Of a stretch of DNA of 64,000 nucleotides, positions 18,001 to 24,000 are shown one piece after another. This DNA is from an uncultured Gemmatimonadales bacterium (GTDB lineage Bacteria; Gemmatimonadota; Gemmatimonadetes; Gemmatimonadales; GWC2-71-9). A program made the position numbers. The stretch is from assembly GCA_963842945.1 (NCBI GenBank), contig CAWJIM010000019.1:1-64000 (forward strand), written 5' to 3'. The number at the start of each line of letters is the position of its first letter. The first letter of the stretch is position 1.

Positions 18001-21000
18001 AACAATTACGCCTAGTAGCCCTAGTGATCCGAATCCGATCCATCGATCAACTGACGCATATAGGATGGCGATAAGAATTGCGATTAGGCTCGCGCCTAGG
18101 TCATATCCCAGTACTCCACGAGTATTCAGGCTCCAGATCTCACGAAAAGCCCGTTCTGAGCTCAGCGAAACGGCAAGGCTTACCAGAACAGAATTGACCA
18201 GTAGATAGCTGACGGCCAAGACCAAGAACAGGCCTAAGTCGGCCTGAAGGATTCTAGAATTCAGGTGCAGTTCGGGAGCCAGGTAAGACGGCGGAAGATT
18301 GCCGCCGATGCCGGAGTAGATTGTGGCGCCTACGACAACCGCCAAAATCCTTTGAGAAACATTGAAGAGTACCTTTAGTGGTCGGGTGCCGGAGGAAACT
18401 TGGCTGAGGCATGTTGCCGTGCCTGCCATAAGACCTGCCCAGAATCCTCCGAAAAGCAGGCATCCCGCGAGGTGCATCAAGAATGAGGTGGAGCCTTTCG
18501 CCCCAACCCTTAAGTCAGTGTGGAGGGTGTCTAGTATGAAGGCTACGAAAACGAACGTGCCGAGAGGCCACCACCCTGGGGAGGGAAGAGAAAAAGAAGA
18601 GGCGGCCCCGAGCGCCAAAAGTGCGACGGCGCTAGTGGCGACGACGAATGCAGCTGTCCGTATCTGATTAGACATTATGGAGGATGGGGACCCCGGCCAA
18701 AGTTGTTACTTCCAGTCCTGCCCTTCACCTCCGCCGATCAATCTGGCGAAGAAGGCACTTACTCTAGCGATCAAACTGCCTTTCAACATGAGCGTCACCT
18801 CCCTTCGAGACTAAAGACCTCGGGAAGTGGCAAGCCTCGCTATGGCCTACCAGACGCTCCGCTCGACAGCCGCTCGCTCGTCTCCGCTAGTCCCACACCT
18901 GCATACCTGCGAAGACCGGGATCCCCTTTCCTTTTTCCTTTCTGTCTAGGGTCCAACCACCGACAAACCCCTACCGCAACCGTCATACTCCATCGCCTAG
19001 AGTTTCGGCATATGCCCGCATTCCGATGAGCCCACGCCGCAACCCCGCCTGGAGCGGTCGCGAGGGCTGCCTGAGTTGTTTCCTAATGAAAAGGATCCGG
19101 ACGACAGGGGGTGACGTCCGCCCTACAAACTACTGCGCGCAACCGGTCTTGGCTAGACCCCTAAACTGCCCATGGTCGGTCGGTCAGCCGGTCGGAACAG
19201 CATGGCTCAGCATGCCCCGCTGACCCGCCTGACCACCGCCGACTACTCCGGTCTCCGGGTCTCCGTCCACCGGTTGGTCGCATCCAGCACCGCGAACACC
19301 GCCGCCCGCTCGGCGCTCTCCTTGATCTCCGCCGTGCCGCTCAGCAGCAGCGTCTCCCGCCCGCCCAGCCCCTGCACCGCCACGAAGGCGAACTCCCGGT
19401 CGAACCCCTCCACGATCTTGGCCCCCTCCAGCGCCAGGCTCGAGTCCTTGAGCAGCCGGTCCATCACCGCCACCGCCGCCTTGGCCGCCGCCTCCACCCG
19501 GCTCCGGGGAGTGTCCGACGCCTCCTCTTCCGCCGTCTCGGTCTGCCCCCGATACGACAGGGTCACCGAGATCGAGATCCGGTGCGGCCGCCGGCTGGGC
19601 CCCGCGGTCAGGTTCTCGAACAGCACCGTCCGCTGGAGCACCTTTTCCCGGACCGATTCGCGCTCCAGCGCCTCGATCGGCTTCACCTCGGCGGTCTGGG
19701 CGATGCTGATCTTCCGGTGATCGATCTTGAGGCCGAGCTGGGCCAGAAGCGCCGACTCGATGTTGCGCACCAGCTGCTTGGGAGCGAGGCCGGCCTGGGC
19801 CAGCACGTGGACCTCACTCACCTCGCCCAGCGGGGTGGTCACCACCCGGGCGGAAAGAATCCCCTCCAGGCTGGTGAGCAGGTTCTCCGCCCGGCGCACC
19901 CCCCAGGGATCGGGGAGGGCGTCGGCCGCGGAACTCCGCCCCGGCGGGGGCGGGCCTGGCTGCTTGGCACTCCACGTGGGTTCGGTCATGGTGTGTAGTC
20001 GCGAGTCGTGAGTCGCGAGTCAAGCGAAGCGACTCGAAACTCGGTATTCCGGTTGACCTCTAGGCAAACCTTCATCTCAATCGAATCCTGACCTTTGACT
20101 CGTGACTCGTGACTCGTGACTCGTGACTCGTGACTCATGACTCGTGACTCGCGACTCGCGACTCGTCCTTACGCCACCGCATTCCGTCCCGCCGCCTTGG
20201 CCCGGTACAGCGCCCGGTCCGCCGTCACCAGCAGGTCATCCTCCGGCTGGCGGCTGTCGAACTCGGAGAGGCCGATGCTCACGGTGATCAGTCCGGCCGG
20301 ATAGCCCAGCCGGCGGCCGATCCCTTCGATCCCTGCCCGGAGCGCCTCGGCCACCCGCATCCCGCCCTGCAGCTCGGTGCGGGTGAGGATAACCACGAAC
20401 TCGTCGCCGCCATACCGCGCCGCCACGTCCGACGCTCGGATCGCGTGGCGGATCTCCTCGGCCACCGCCTTCAGGATCTCGTTGCCCACCTCATGGCCGT
20501 AGCTGTCGTTCACGTCCTTGAAGCGATCCAGATCCATGAACAACACGGCGAAGCCCTCGTTGCTCCGCTTGCAGCGCTCGATCTCGAACACCAGCCGGTC
20601 CCGAAGCACCCGGTAGGTCGAGAGGCCGGTCAGGGAGTCCACCGCGGCCTGGCGCTGCGCCTCTTCCGCCCGCCGCTCCTGGTACGGCGCGCACTGCCGG
20701 AGCGACGCCCTTCCCACCACCGCGGCTTCGGCGAACCGCTGGCAGGTGGTGAAGCCGCAGGCCCCGCAGTCCCAGGGAGTCCCGTTGGGGCTCAGGCCGA
20801 TCTGGTTGATGATCGCCGCCACCGCCGCCTGATCGGGCCGCACCGGCCGCTGCCGGATGGCGAACGCTGCCCCGACACTCGCTACCACCGCGCTGTCCAC
20901 CACCGGCGAAGCGCTCCGAGGCGGCTCGGTGCTGGCCAGCAGCTCCCGCCGCCAGAACAGCTCCTCCCGGGGACCCGAGAGCGGATGATCCAGCGACCCC

Positions 21001-24000
21001 TCGGTCGACAGGATGTCCACGAAGCCCAGATCCAGCCGGTCCACCGCCACCGCCCGCGCCACCGACTTGAGCGCCTCCAGCCCCCGCAGCTTCCGGAAGC
21101 GGCGGCTGGAGTAGCGCGCCTCCTCCAGCAGCGCCAGCGGCAGGCCGCCGGCTGCACTGAGATGCCGTCGCCGCTCCTGCGGCACCCGCTCGAAGAAGGT
21201 CGGCTGGGTGAGGAGGTTCACCCCTTGGACCCGGAAGATCTGATCCAGGTCGCTGAAGGTGATCGCGGCGTCGAGCTCGGTAGTGCTGACTGGGGGACAG
21301 ATGCCAGCGTAGGCAATCTTGAGGCCAGGGCCGTATTGGCCCCGGAGATAGCGGGCCTCCGCCACCGCCGGCAGGGTGACCGGAGCGAGGTAGGGCAGCA
21401 GCTCGGGGAACTGGTAGCGCACCGTCTCCACCACCACCGGGTCGGTGGAGCGGATCAGGGTACCCCACGGCTCCTCGTGCCATAGCTTAAGGTATTCAGC
21501 GGCAACGAGTTCATCGCCGATGACACCCCGGGTGACGGCCCGGAAGCCGACCTCGTGGCAGGCGTTGATGACCTGTTCAGGAGTGGCGGGATAGAAGTGG
21601 GCGACGGACTCGGGGCTGAGGATGAGTACGCCGTCTCCCCCCGTGGCGATGGCAAGAGCCCGCCCGATTTCGCCGTTTACCTTGACAGCGCCATGGGGAC
21701 ACACAGCCAGGCACTGACCGGAGCGGATGCACGTCTCATTGTCGATGACAGGCAACAACGGCTCGTCCACCGGCACCGCGATGGCATCGGTGGGGCAGAC
21801 GCGGACGCAGGCCAAGCACGAGACGCAGAGCTCGGCGTCAATGACGAAATTCAAAGACCTGATCCGTCAGGGGGAGGGAGAATTTGCAATTTGACGGTCC
21901 GGTGCCACAGTGTCAAGCCGTTAGTAGCTGCAAATTATTTGTACAGTTACAGTTAGCGAGATGCATCGGTTTGCAATCAGTCCGGAGCCAGGAGTCGAGA
22001 GTCGCGAGCTATGGGCGTACTAAGTCGATCCGGTTAGTCACGGTTCTCAGCTCTCAAGCATCTGAGCGTCCTGGCGGCTGAGCTCCAGACTCGCGACTCA
22101 GGACTACTCCAACCGATACGCCTTGATCTTCCGGTACAGCGTCCGCTCTCCGATACCGAGCACTTCGGCGGCCCGCCGCCGGTTGCCCTTGTACTCCCGC
22201 AACGCTGCCTCGATGGTGGCCCGCTCCACCTCGGCCATGGTCATACCCGGCCGGTAGAGCACCGGCTGTTCCCCGTCGCCATCCACTTCCGACATCACGT
22301 CGGTAACCTGCGCATGGTTTCCCAGGTCGATGACCTGGACCCGCTGGGGATGCTCGTCGATCCGGCGCCGCATCTCCTCGATCTGGAGCCGGAGATCCAC
22401 CAGGCTCCGCAGAATGAACTCCAGCTCTTGCAGCCCCGCTGCCCCGCTGCCCATCTGCCCCGCCGTTCCCAGCCGCATGGGGAGGAGCGTGCCCGCACCC
22501 TCGAGCACGTCCACCGGAATGTCGGTCGCCCGGATCTCCGCGCCGGGAGCCAGCACCACCATCGACTCGATCAGGTTGCGCAGCTGGCGCACGTTGCCGG
22601 GCCAGGGCGCGCTCACCAGCCGCTGCATGGCCTCGGGAGCGATTCCCCGGAACTGCCGGTCGTGCGCCTTGGCGAACTCCCGGATGAACCGGCGGACCAG
22701 GAGTGGGATGTCGCCCCGGCGCTCGCGCAGGGGCGGAAGATAGATGTTGAGGACGTTCAGCCGATAGTAGAGGTCGTCGCGAAACTCGCCCAGCGCCACG
22801 GCATCGCGAAGCGCCCGGTTGGTGGCGGCGATGACCCGGACGCTGACCTTGATCGCCTGGGTCCCGCCCACTCGAAAGAAGGTCCGGCTCTCCAGCACCC
22901 GAAGCAGCTTGACCTGGGTGGAGAGCGGAATCTCTCCGATCTCGTCGAGGAAGATGGTCCCGCCGTCGGCCAGCTCGAACCGGCCCAGCCGCCGCTCGGC
23001 CGCCCCGGTAAAGGCGCCTTTCTCGTGGCCGAACAGCTCCGACTCCAGCAGCGTATCCGGCAGGGCGGCGCAGTTCACCGTGATGAACGCCCCGCCTCGC
23101 CGAGGCGAGAGGTCATGCAGGGCCTTGGCGACCAGCTCCTTGCCGGTGCCGCTCTCTCCCTGGATCAGGACCGTGCTGGAGACCGGCGCCATCTGCTCGA
23201 TCTTGACCAGCACCTCCTGGATCGGGGCGCTCTCGCCCACGATCCCGGTGCGCTCCTGCAGATGCCGCCGCTCGATCAGCCGCCGAGCGGTGGCCACCGC
23301 GTCGTCGGGCTGAACCGGCTTGGTCATCACCTCGGTGGCGTGGAGCCGTTCCACCCGCTCGGTGCGCTCCGAGTCGGTGGGCTCCAGCAGCGCCAGGGTG
23401 GAGATCTCCGCGTCGTGGGCCAGCGCCGCGAGCTGCTGCGCGTGCGGCTCGTGCACCGCCCCGGTGAGGATCACCAGATCCGGGTTCTCCCGGCGGACGG
23501 TGCCGCGGGCGTCGTCCAGGCTGGAGAACATGGTGGTGGAGAACTGGGCCGCCTCGAGCGCGGCGTTGAGCCGGACCGCGGTCTCGAGATCGTCCATGGT
23601 GATGAGGATCTGTGAAGCCATGGCGTAAAAACTAATGGGTGGGACGGGAGAGAGTCGTCAGTCGTCTTGCCAAAGCCGGCACACCGCACTAAGTCCCAGC
23701 CATCCCGCAACAATCGATACCGCTATGAGAAGCTCTGCGATGGTCCTGGGACTTACGCTTCTCCGGGCCGCTGATCTCGCTGCCCAGACCGAGGCCGAAA
23801 CCCAGCGTGCCACTCTTGCCGGTCTAAGAAGCTTTGGGGTCCACGCCAGCGTGCAGCTTTCTCAGGGTGCGACGCTGGAACGGATTGAGGAGAAGGTGCT
23901 GCGCGACAGAATCGGGGATGCACTCCGTCGGGAGGGCATCATGATCCAGACCCGCAGCGACGTGCGGGACGGCTCGCAGGCGAGCCTGGACCTTCTCTAT

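Follow-up and report, generated by a model that had tools for sequence, protein, structure and literature searches.

Eukaryotic Nar1/IOP1 proteins have a hydrogenase fold without the diiron subcluster or hydrogenase activity; Nar1 retains the cubane, has a role in Fe-S assembly and carries no GGDEF domain. In [FeFe]-hydrogenases a lysine three residues after the P2 Cys (P2 Lys) helps to hold the diiron site. The pockets of sensory hydrogenases tolerate large changes (PMC8163306), and genomes that lack maturases can have active [FeFe]-hydrogenases (PMC11216029). The group C types of HydDB are kinase-, chemotaxis- and phosphatase-linked, and in the part of PMC5037454 accessible to us a cyclase-linked type is listed only for [NiFe] 2c. 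According to PMC13104023, the C-terminal cluster of TamHydS, homologous to the one described below, gave no response to H2.

On the output side, c-di-GMP is the common messenger and cGAMP a rare one. A cross-dimer Arg is present in 94% of predicted diguanylate cyclases, and an Asp-to-Ser change at the selectivity position often kills canonical enzymes (PMC6456294). The Hypr cGAMP synthases are rare, at 0.17% of GGDEFs (PMC9140294), and cGAMP-specific HD-GYP phosphodiesterases of the PmxA type have RxxQ/N (10.1101/600031). Here we describe a protein encoded in a 64,000-nucleotide stretch of Gemmatimonadales DNA (the window); genes of its kind are carried by a common group of uncultured Gemmatimonadota.

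Domain layout, accessory clusters and the orphan neighbour

The gene and its parts are as follows:

20169..21854, minus strand: hydrogenase-derived GGDEF protein, 561 aa, TTG start (ORF, Pfam, model)
21687..21848, minus strand: 2x[4Fe-4S] ferredoxin module, residues 3-56 (Pfam, alignment)
20853..21677, minus strand: H-domain fold lacking the ligands of the H-cluster, roughly residues 60-334 (structure match, profile alignment)
20691..20768, minus strand: C-terminal Cx2Cx4Cx16C Fe-S motif, C363, C366, C371 and C388 (Pfam, motif in PMC8163306)
20181..20648, minus strand: GGDEF domain, GGDEF motif and RxxD inhibitory site both intact (Pfam)

The ORF and domains reported in the first-pass annotation were reproduced: two N-terminal Fer4 matches, Fe_hyd_lg_C at residues 79-282 (E 4.4e-9), FeS at 362-390 and GGDEF at 403-558 (E 3.3e-40). 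With residues 55-400 as query, phmmer returned 1213 matches at E<=1e-3 and 57 at <=1e-30 among 1.84e9 representatives, close to the previous 1204 and 57. The caveat that the fold rested on sequence profiles only is superseded by a predicted structure (pLDDT 92.2, pTM 0.74, from a 75-row alignment) that matches the solved hydrogenase CbA5H (8zqd) with a Z of 28.6 and an rmsd of 3.1 Å over 329 residues. A profile search also matches solved [FeFe]-hydrogenases (best E 4.4e-11), and a profile is required to reach them, as a single-sequence PDB search had no hydrogenase H-domain among its best 60 matches; in the ESM Atlas the sensor region falls with hydrogenase-domain clusters, all sub-0.9. The protein is a descendant of the group C/D sensory [FeFe]-hydrogenases, and the wider family, which the first-pass annotation called unnamed, therefore already has a name: its PAS, kinase, sigma-54 and MCP relatives have the group C architecture given in PMC5037454 and PMC8163306.

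The alignment bears out the earlier count of accessory ligands, seven of eight ferredoxin Cys (Cys45 is Ser here and Cys in the closest relatives) and all four C-terminal Cys, and sequence and model show an intact set of ligands, enough for as many as three accessory Fe-S clusters. At least 7/8 ferredoxin Cys are present in 49/55 orthologs and the C-terminal motif in most, and four of the 55 have no Fe-S Cys at all, yet retain the H-domain and GGDEF.

But are these clusters the input? The proposal that the protein is an Fe-S redox sensor is plausible and, given those four orthologs and the H2-silent TamHydS cluster (PMC13104023), unproven. Alternatively, the emptied H-domain might bind a small ligand or a protein, the clusters being structural leftovers; this would fit either product of the GGDEF domain, and we consider it somewhat unlikely. 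It would account for the same four orthologs, for the silence of the TamHydS cluster and for the conservation of about 60 H-domain and linker positions in at least 53/55 orthologs, charged residues (E82, D114, E115, R135, R230, R257, D280 and H290) among them, with E82, R135 and H290 invariant in 55/55; the wide retention of ferredoxin and C-terminal Cys argues against it. The adjoining gene also bears on this point:

19243..19989, minus strand: 248-aa orphan adjoining the hydrogenase-like gene (locus comparison)

The orphan is the next gene in all 58 ortholog loci (54 genomes). For its C-terminal part a LeuA/CMS regulatory fold is predicted, and for its N-terminal domain a likeness to the domain that CDF metal transporters have in the cytosol; the ESM Atlas returned unnamed Gemmatimonadota clusters only. 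With a hydrogenase-like gene upstream, the orphan carries the motif DPWG near its N terminus (D and P are invariant in 43/43), and DPWG is missing in 15/15 cassettes devoid of that gene, which would suit an H-domain that binds a ligand or protein, although the association may reflect one evolutionary event. Complex predictions for the 561-aa protein with orphan residues 24-246, run without controls, scored 0.00 twice, which counts neither for nor against contact.

The GGDEF output and GEMM-I riboswitches

The statement that the protein makes c-di-GMP was not supported in that form: both residues known to govern base selectivity are non-canonical.

20613..20615, minus strand: Y414, at the cross-dimer position, where canonical cyclases have Arg and GacA has Tyr (alignment, PMC6456294)
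20481..20483, minus strand: N458, base-selectivity position, canonically Asp and Ser/Thr in Hypr enzymes (alignment, PMC6456294, PMC9140294)

Among the 55 orthologs the cross-dimer residue is Tyr in 41, Phe in 12, Ile in 1 and Val in 1, with no Arg, and the selectivity residue is Asn in 54 and Ser in one (G059), whose best PDB match is GacA, aligning Tyr with Tyr and Ser with Ser. The GGDEF motif is intact in 54/55, its central Asp (GGDEF, not GGEEF) is present in 55/55, and the metal-binding DxD and substrate Lys/Asn are retained; the residue before the Tyr (position 413), Asn in GacA, is Thr, Ser or Ala in every ortholog. By comparison, a survey of 15 Gemmatimonadota genomes yielded 88 further GGDEFs with a selectivity Asp (87) or Ser (1), no cross-dimer Tyr or Phe and no case of the aromatic plus non-Asp pair, and the other seven GGDEFs with a readable motif in this genome all have the Asp. 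A Fisher test made with this survey is descriptive only, kin not being independent. No test of an enzyme with Asn at the Hypr selectivity position was found in the accessible literature. Judged by residue identity, both selectivity positions lean to the cGAMP synthase GacA and away from cyclases that make c-di-GMP, and cGAMP is no less likely than c-di-GMP to be the product. SMODS-type CD-NTases (the DncV-type alternative source of cGAMP) were found in only 2/151 host-family genomes.

GEMM-I riboswitches (RF01051) were found in 86/100 host-family genomes. Fifty aptamers were read, with the G20 position located through the Rfam structure line and Vc2 numbering: 21 have A at the G20 position, and the triplet is AAC in 20 and GAC in 27, one further A20 aptamer being mis-trimmed at its 3' end. 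The A20 pattern occurs in 90/125 host-family vs 10/69 sister-family genomes and G20 in 53/125 vs 34/69, a contrast that amounts to one phylogenetic comparison. With A47 and C92 retained, the host A20 aptamers (3/10 in this genome) fit the GEMM-Ib (cGAMP) pattern, and cGAMP is their predicted ligand; their folding energies against base shuffles are mostly unremarkable (z 0.7 to -3.3), so their identity depends on the Rfam model. One A20 switch heads an operon of STAS, receiver, ABC ATPase, CcmB and CcmC genes, and the cGAMP regulon of GacA also includes cytochromes (PMC6456294). Outside the host family A20 switches occur in 17/175 genomes, and none was found in the nine genomes of families f5 and f6 that carry the hydrogenase-like gene.

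Could Fe-S redox instead be gating an ordinary diguanylate cyclase, one in which Asn reads guanine and the A20 switches answer c-di-GMP at another threshold? We think this unlikely. [quoted passage not shown] Set against this, the usual Arg is replaced in every ortholog, most often with the Tyr of GacA, the complete Hypr signature occurs in one ortholog, and several canonical cyclases are already in the genome. The neighbouring phosphodiesterase is of c-di-GMP type, which favours an ordinary cyclase, but it is older than the gene's arrival:

17290..18675, minus strand: MASE9-HD-GYP phosphodiesterase, canonical RxxR, c-di-GMP-type (Pfam, motif alignment)
18706..18789, minus strand: hydrophobic peptide gene, 27 codons, ending near Trp, strong Shine-Dalgarno (counterparts in relatives)
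22104..23621, minus strand: NtrC-like sigma-54 activator, heading the older cassette (Pfam, locus comparison)

The HD-GYP neighbour noted in the first-pass annotation is conserved, with RxxR in all 21 readable loci of 23 (and in all five HD-GYPs found in this genome). The cassette with the HD-GYP also occurs without the hydrogenase-like gene at 15 loci; by locus comparison, the gene sits within an older cassette and the HD-GYP predates its arrival, and with its canonical c-di-GMP motif it is therefore weak evidence of pairing with the cyclase. No sigma-70 promoter was found in 18600-22150 and no sigma-54 consensus near the hydrogenase-like gene (three matches elsewhere, 5.6 expected by chance). 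Just 5-8% of words were present in 16 soil/rhizosphere metatranscriptomes; in four metatranscriptomes short contigs of relatives map to the hydrogenase-like gene, to the orphan and to the peptide leader and leave most of the HD-GYP uncovered, and such contigs carry no information on expression level or habitat.

A catalytically weak or dead GGDEF whose RxxD site makes it a receptor for c-di-GMP or a nucleotide is quite improbable. In its favour, three conserved residues of the active site or a turn (413, 414 and 458) are altered, and 4/11 GGDEF-fused outgroup proteins have a degenerate motif; degenerate GGDEF receptors, however, usually lose the motif, which is kept here in nearly all orthologs together with the metal-binding and substrate residues.

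Loss of the H-cluster ligands

A profile alignment with solved [FeFe]-hydrogenases sets the register and places D138, C186, T284 and S287 where the four Cys of the H-cluster would stand, the D, C, T, S reported before. V189 occupies the P2 Lys position, and the Lys is found in 0/55 orthologs, in 25/31 non-GGDEF outgroup proteins and in the three solved enzymes compared. Because it is gone from every ortholog an H-cluster cannot be held, and sequence and model both indicate that the 561-aa protein is without an H-cluster site. The orthologs have all four Cys in 10 cases, one in 16 and none in 29, with at least two losses in a careful 40-row tree, from which most of the outgroup and the stand-alone family were left out (a 115-row tree was computed in quick mode only). 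On this distribution the loss is stepwise, and the D/T/S replacements, described previously as clade-wide, are the state of one subclade rather than of the whole Gemmatimonadota family, because 10/55 orthologs retain four Cys. Position 284 holds 11 different residues, a variety that reads as drift rather than a new ligand set.

As reported before, no maturase was found, here in a search for HydG and HydF that did not include HydE: neither scored above cut-off in this genome (87% complete), and no HydG did in 151 host-family genomes; nor was a NiFe hydrogenase found in this genome. Maturase absence alone does not decide the H-cluster question, because active [FeFe]-hydrogenases occur without maturases (PMC11216029). 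A continued role in H2 sensing, by way of Asp/Ser ligation or an atypical cofactor, could appeal to such genomes, to the tolerance of sensory pockets (PMC8163306) and to the ten four-Cys orthologs, and is very improbable given one Cys of four here, none in 29 orthologs, the missing P2 Lys and the drift at position 284. The earlier conclusion that the protein is hydrogenase-derived, H-cluster-less and not an H2 sensor of known kind is thus supported, and Fe_hyd_lg_C matches in these genomes should not be taken for hydrogenases.

Proposed mechanism and comparison with known systems

We cautiously favour an Fe-S-gated Hypr-like cyclase. A group C/D sensory [FeFe]-hydrogenase ancestor would have lost its diiron pocket first and, in the window's subclade, the cubane ligands later, and the former hydrogenase part would now regulate the Hypr-like GGDEF enzyme to which it is joined. 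Changes in the redox state or integrity of these accessory clusters (reporting oxygen, iron supply or the ferredoxin pool) may shift helix 389-403, which runs from the C-terminal cluster to the GGDEF domain, and so gate a dimer that accepts ATP besides GTP and has 3',3'-cGAMP as its product, alone or together with c-di-GMP. A20 GEMM-I switches of the STAS-receiver-ccmABC operon and of Ig-repeat surface lipoproteins would read the product, and c-di-GMP from other cyclases might damp the enzyme through its RxxD site. It is possible, and we put it more tentatively, that Gemmatimonadota have an undescribed cGAMP system made up of a hydrogenase-derived Fe-S sensor, a promiscuous GGDEF of a new Asn/Tyr class fused to it, and A20 switches controlling cytochrome c maturation and surface lipoproteins, and that the sensor's orthologs keep a stepwise series from sensory hydrogenase with H-cluster to cubane only, empty pocket and no Fe-S.

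If so, the Asn/Tyr class would widen the Hypr definition, now recognised by Ser/Thr, and cGAMP signalling would gain a place in a phylum that is widespread but little studied, its enzyme, riboswitches and targets all being named. Quite apart from what the enzyme makes, this family forms a natural series from hydrogenase to cofactor-less signalling domain, and it offers a direct read-out of signal passage by the group C/D C-terminal cluster, a question that PMC13104023 does not settle. Our literature search found no description of a GGDEF-fused, ligand-less hydrogenase branch.

The 561-aa protein shares with group C/D sensory [FeFe]-hydrogenases (TmHydS, TamHydS; M2f/M2e) a 2x[4Fe-4S] F-domain and H-domain, then a C-terminal Cx2Cx4Cx16C cluster and a signalling domain, and the absence of the proton-transfer Cys (PMC8163306); unlike them it has neither H-cluster ligands nor P2 Lys, its host family has no detected HydG, and GGDEF stands in place of PAS. 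The ten four-Cys orthologs resemble the Nar1/IOP1 state, whereas the window's subclade has also lost the cubane ligands. From canonical diguanylate cyclases, with which it shares the GG(D/E)EF motif and metal ligands, it differs in having N458 for Asp and Y414 for Arg. It differs from the Hypr GGDEFs (Geobacter GacA, Myxococcus GacB, Bdellovibrio Bd0367) in the Asn for Ser/Thr of 54/55 orthologs, the replaced Asn before the Tyr, a hydrogenase-derived input rather than a receiver or cAMP-binding domain, its phylum, and a host in which no RxxQ/N phosphodiesterase was found. It resembles them in having GGDEF rather than GGEEF, a non-Asp selectivity residue, a cross-dimer residue that is aromatic and stands at an equal spacing of 44 residues, an RxxD site and GEMM-I A20 riboswitches in the host.

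Architecture and ancestry of the hydrogenase-derived protein

The gene encodes a 561-aa product that is the sole PF02906 match in its own genome, and Pfam bears out the domain layout given by the first-pass annotation:

20169-21854, minus strand: two Fer4 modules, Fe_hyd_lg_C (residues 79-282, E 4.4e-9), FeS (362-390) and GGDEF (403-558, E 3.3e-40)

Runs of a 7-base repeat unit lie on both intergenic flanks of the gene (20070-20166 and 21990-22100). Residues 1-334 of an AlphaFold2 model (75-row alignment; pLDDT 92.2, pTM 0.74) match the [FeFe]-hydrogenase CbA5H (Z 28.6, rmsd 3.1 Å, 329 residues superposed), the C-terminal part matches GGDEF domains (Z about 25), and Foldseek agrees. 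When a profile of the H-domain was used to align motifs P1, P2 and P3 to solved hydrogenases, the four cubane cysteine positions were found to hold D138, C186, T284 and S287, as had been reported for this protein; T137 occupies the proton-transfer cysteine position, V189 that of the lysine after the P2 cysteine, and the accessory-cluster ligands are kept. We take this lysine to have a role in holding the diiron site.

The nearest outside relatives (81 proteins were read, picked by length among the 150 matches listed) have the same order of F-domain, H-domain and Cx2Cx4Cx16C, with PAS, kinase, sigma-54, MCP or GGDEF outputs. Because this is the architecture that parts of two papers describe for group C/D sensory hydrogenases (PMC8163306, PMC5037454), the wider family, earlier called unnamed, already has a name. 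Of the non-GGDEF outgroup proteins 25 of 31 have the P2 lysine, of those fused to GGDEF 2 of 11, and of the Gemmatimonadota orthologs 0 of 55; the diiron pocket was therefore the first part to decay. The orthologs were taken one to a genome, as the 30 best matches and 25 spanning the range, so their proportions are not unbiased. Nine GGDEF-fused relatives outside the clade (P0180, P0181, P0189, P0192, P0196, P0202, P0208, P0218 and P0264) keep the four cysteines and lack the P2 lysine; several have a cross-dimer His, and four a degenerate GGDEF motif.

All four cubane cysteines are present in 10 of the 55 orthologs, one in 16 and none in 29, so the loss claimed earlier holds for the window protein and not for every Gemmatimonadota ortholog; in 4 of the 55 all ferredoxin and C-terminal cysteines are also gone. 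In a careful 40-row tree the orthologs form one side of a 100/100 branch, with at least two cysteine losses (bootstrap range 2-3). The maturase survey covered HydG in 151 genomes of the window's family (f1), where none exceeded the cut-off, and HydF in the own genome only, HydE being left out; according to part of PMC11216029, absent maturases do not prove an absent H-cluster. The missing ligands, judged from sequence, come close to proof that the window protein holds none. The emptied domain is still under strong constraint: some 60 positions of the H-domain and linker are conserved in 53 or more of the 55 orthologs, and these include E82 and R135, in place of which relatives carry small pocket residues. 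Four loci (L035-L038, in genomes G086, G280, G261 and G060) have lost every Fe-S cysteine and keep the H-domain, a Tyr/Asn GGDEF and the downstream 248-aa orphan gene; the G060 copy is a second one in that genome, nested among sequences of family f6, and therefore reflects transfer or contamination.

In a phylum sample of 301 genomes, also used for the riboswitch-pattern and orphan tallies, the sensor region matches 115 of 125 f1, 1 of 1 f5 and 8 of 23 f6 genomes, nearly always in single copy. The sister family f2 gives weak matches in 22 of 69, which in the 10 f2 loci fetched are a distinct stand-alone H-domain family, and the single f10 locus fetched encodes a group C kinase. This second hydrogenase-derived family (L040-L045 and L047-L050, plus 31 database proteins) has kept its cysteines in 41/41, both in P1 and P2 and in a P3 shortened to CxC, is without ferredoxin, and has a long low-complexity tail and its own conserved neighbourhood. 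The protein database holds 1948 relatives among 7999 candidates scored, and the 120 of them listed are 83-95% identical. Unpublished genomes G057, G097, G157, G182 and G308 enter the sensor, RF01051, A20/G20-pattern and orphan tallies, and G057 supplies one of the 55 orthologs; no claim rests solely on them. The gene is truncated and its cassette missing in G127 and G043 (L337, L338); in G142 and G217 (L339, L340) it is split across frames, which may be sequencing error.

Selectivity positions of the GGDEF domain

Part of PMC6456294 gives two positions that set base choice: the guanine-reading Asp (Ser348 in the Geobacter cGAMP synthase GacA) and the cross-dimer Arg (Tyr304 in GacA), the latter found in 94% of predicted diguanylate cyclases. 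In an alignment with the Idiomarina cyclase, whose file numbering is that of the paper +2 at both positions, the window protein has Y414 on the cross-dimer Arg and N458 on the guanine-reading Asp. Position 414 of the 55 orthologs is Tyr in 41, Phe in 12, Ile in 1 and Val in 1; position 458 is Asn in 54 and Ser in 1. The GGDEF motif stands in 54 of them, and one has GGDEL. Asn also occupies the selectivity position in 114 of 120 close homologs among the matches listed (6 unreadable). The Ser ortholog comes from G059; the PDB entry that matches it best is GacA, and the alignment pairs their Tyr residues and their Ser residues. Other GGDEF domains, 88 in all and taken from 15 Gemmatimonadota genomes (60 of 84 matches plus 28 of 28), served as background: 87 have Asp and one, with a broken motif, Ser, and none has Tyr/Phe at the cross-dimer position. 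The pair is thus non-canonical (Tyr/Phe in 53/55, Asn in 54/55 orthologs), and the product may be c-di-GMP, as assigned earlier, or, at least as probably, cGAMP.

An amide such as that of Asn can act as donor and acceptor of hydrogen bonds, from which we infer that either adenine or guanine could be read here. In HD-GYPs specific for cGAMP, the change reported in part of 10.1101/600031 is Lys-to-Gln/Asn; no test of Asn at the GGDEF position was found in the open-access literature. Position 413 is Thr/Ser/Ala in 55/55 orthologs and Asn in GacA and canonical enzymes, a difference that could lower cyclase activity.

An older cassette around the gene

The orphan, at 19243-19989 on the minus strand, follows the gene in 58/58 loci (54 genomes), and a MASE9-HD-GYP phosphodiesterase gene follows in 23 of 29 wide loci. 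Of 20 wide f1 loci, 19 have an NtrC-like sigma-54 activator gene before it. Two further features lie downstream:

18706-18789, minus strand: gene, absent from the annotation, for a hydrophobic peptide of 27 codons with a Trp near its end; the HD-GYP gene comes next
13896-17240, plus strand: large BTAD/AAA/TPR protein, converging on the HD-GYP gene and adjacent in 11 of 29 wide loci

Where the orphan occurs without the hydrogenase-like gene, the activator is directly upstream in 15/15 loci and the HD-GYP gene follows in 13, the other two ending at a contig edge; the hydrogenase-like gene is thus placed within an older cassette of activator, orphan, peptide and HD-GYP. This explains the canonical phosphodiesterase; the HD-GYP neighbour noted earlier is indeed conserved, and as evidence for the product it is weakened.

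The orphan, found phylum-wide (230 of 301 genomes, weak paralogs included), has an N-terminal DPWG motif that is confined to loci with the hydrogenase-like gene upstream; its model (pLDDT 88.5) combines a CDF-transporter-like cytosolic domain (Z about 9) with a LeuA/CMS regulatory fold (Foldseek E 2.6e-6, Z 9.3). A Shine-Dalgarno scan found peptides similar to the 27-codon gene in 17 of 23 and 28 of 56 related loci, and RNA contigs of relatives cover the peptide leader in two runs. The peptide is a possible membrane ligand for MASE9, a domain for which part of 10.1101/2021.11.05.467447 names no ligand.

A20 riboswitches as candidate receivers

GEMM-I aptamers (RF01051) match in 86 of 100 f1 genomes and at 10 places in the own genome. 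The G20 position, in Vc2 numbering, was placed just before the first P2 pair of the Rfam structure line. An A stands there in 3 of 10 aptamers of the own genome, those at C18:139957, C21:370829 and C19:150822, and in 18 of the 40 drawn from 40 other genomes; A47 and C92 are retained in these aptamers. In cGAMP riboswitches G20 is replaced by A (parts of PMC6140456 and PMC5888326). Exact patterns in the 301 genomes found A20 in 90/125 f1, 10/69 f2, 2/6 f4, 1/47 f7, 3/4 f8 and 1/3 f9 genomes and in neither f5 (0/1) nor f6 (0/23), and G20 in 53/125 f1 and 34/69 f2; reversed-pattern controls gave one match each. The difference in A20 between f1 and f2 amounts to a single comparison of kin groups. 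Two of 151 f1 genomes have SMODS-type CD-NTases, and the own genome has none. One A20 switch is:

G000 (own genome), contig C19, 150822-150914 (L135), minus strand: A20 GEMM-I riboswitch leading STAS, receiver, ABC ATPase, CcmB and CcmC (ccmABC) genes

By translation, the same order stands behind the switch in 5 of 10 hand-picked A20 loci of other genomes (G121, G125, G122, G215 and G191); in six other A20 loci the switch stands before genes for Big_2 Ig-repeat proteins, whose leaders are lipoprotein-like. Tandem aptamers also precede Ig-repeat lipoprotein genes, some as A20 + G20 pairs (L149 in G046, L121, L123, L124, L125), possibly a two-messenger logic gate.

Several observations weigh against a cGAMP link. 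All ten f1 genomes without a gene match still have the A20 pattern; none has a strong orphan match, so the whole cassette is unassembled or deleted there. G127, a single contig, has the first ~130 residues of the gene only and lacks the cassette there; it carries one A20 switch, and five canonical GGDEFs besides. No Hypr-like GGDEF was found among the domains read in ten A20-positive genomes of f2, f4 and f8, and none of the nine f5/f6 genomes that carry the gene has the A20 pattern. The G20A form of the Vc2 aptamer binds both c-di-GMP (53 nM) and cGAMP (120 nM; part of PMC6140456). The neighbouring HD-GYP has RxxR in 21/21 readable loci, as do all five HD-GYPs found by motif in the own genome.

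On balance, synthesis of cGAMP by the window protein seems about as probable as not, and we would give similar weight to Fe-S gating of the cyclase through the 389-403 helix; in TamHydS the homologous C-terminal cluster is not reduced by H2 (part of PMC13104023). The product may in turn be linked to the A20 switches. The steps are not independent, and the overall picture of Fe-S gating, cGAMP synthesis and that link is plausible at slightly under even chances.

No open-access paper was found joining FeFe hydrogenase, group C and GGDEF (subscription journals lay outside the search), nor any mention of "diguanylate" among the sensory-hydrogenase papers listed or of "Gemmatimonadota" among those listed on cGAMP/GGDEF; a search for hydrogenase-like sensors gave only an unrelated paper. 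The window protein descends from sensory hydrogenases and, by its failed ligands, falls outside them; with Asn, not Ser/Thr, it likewise lies outside the Hypr enzymes as the published rule defines them, and it probably works like them.
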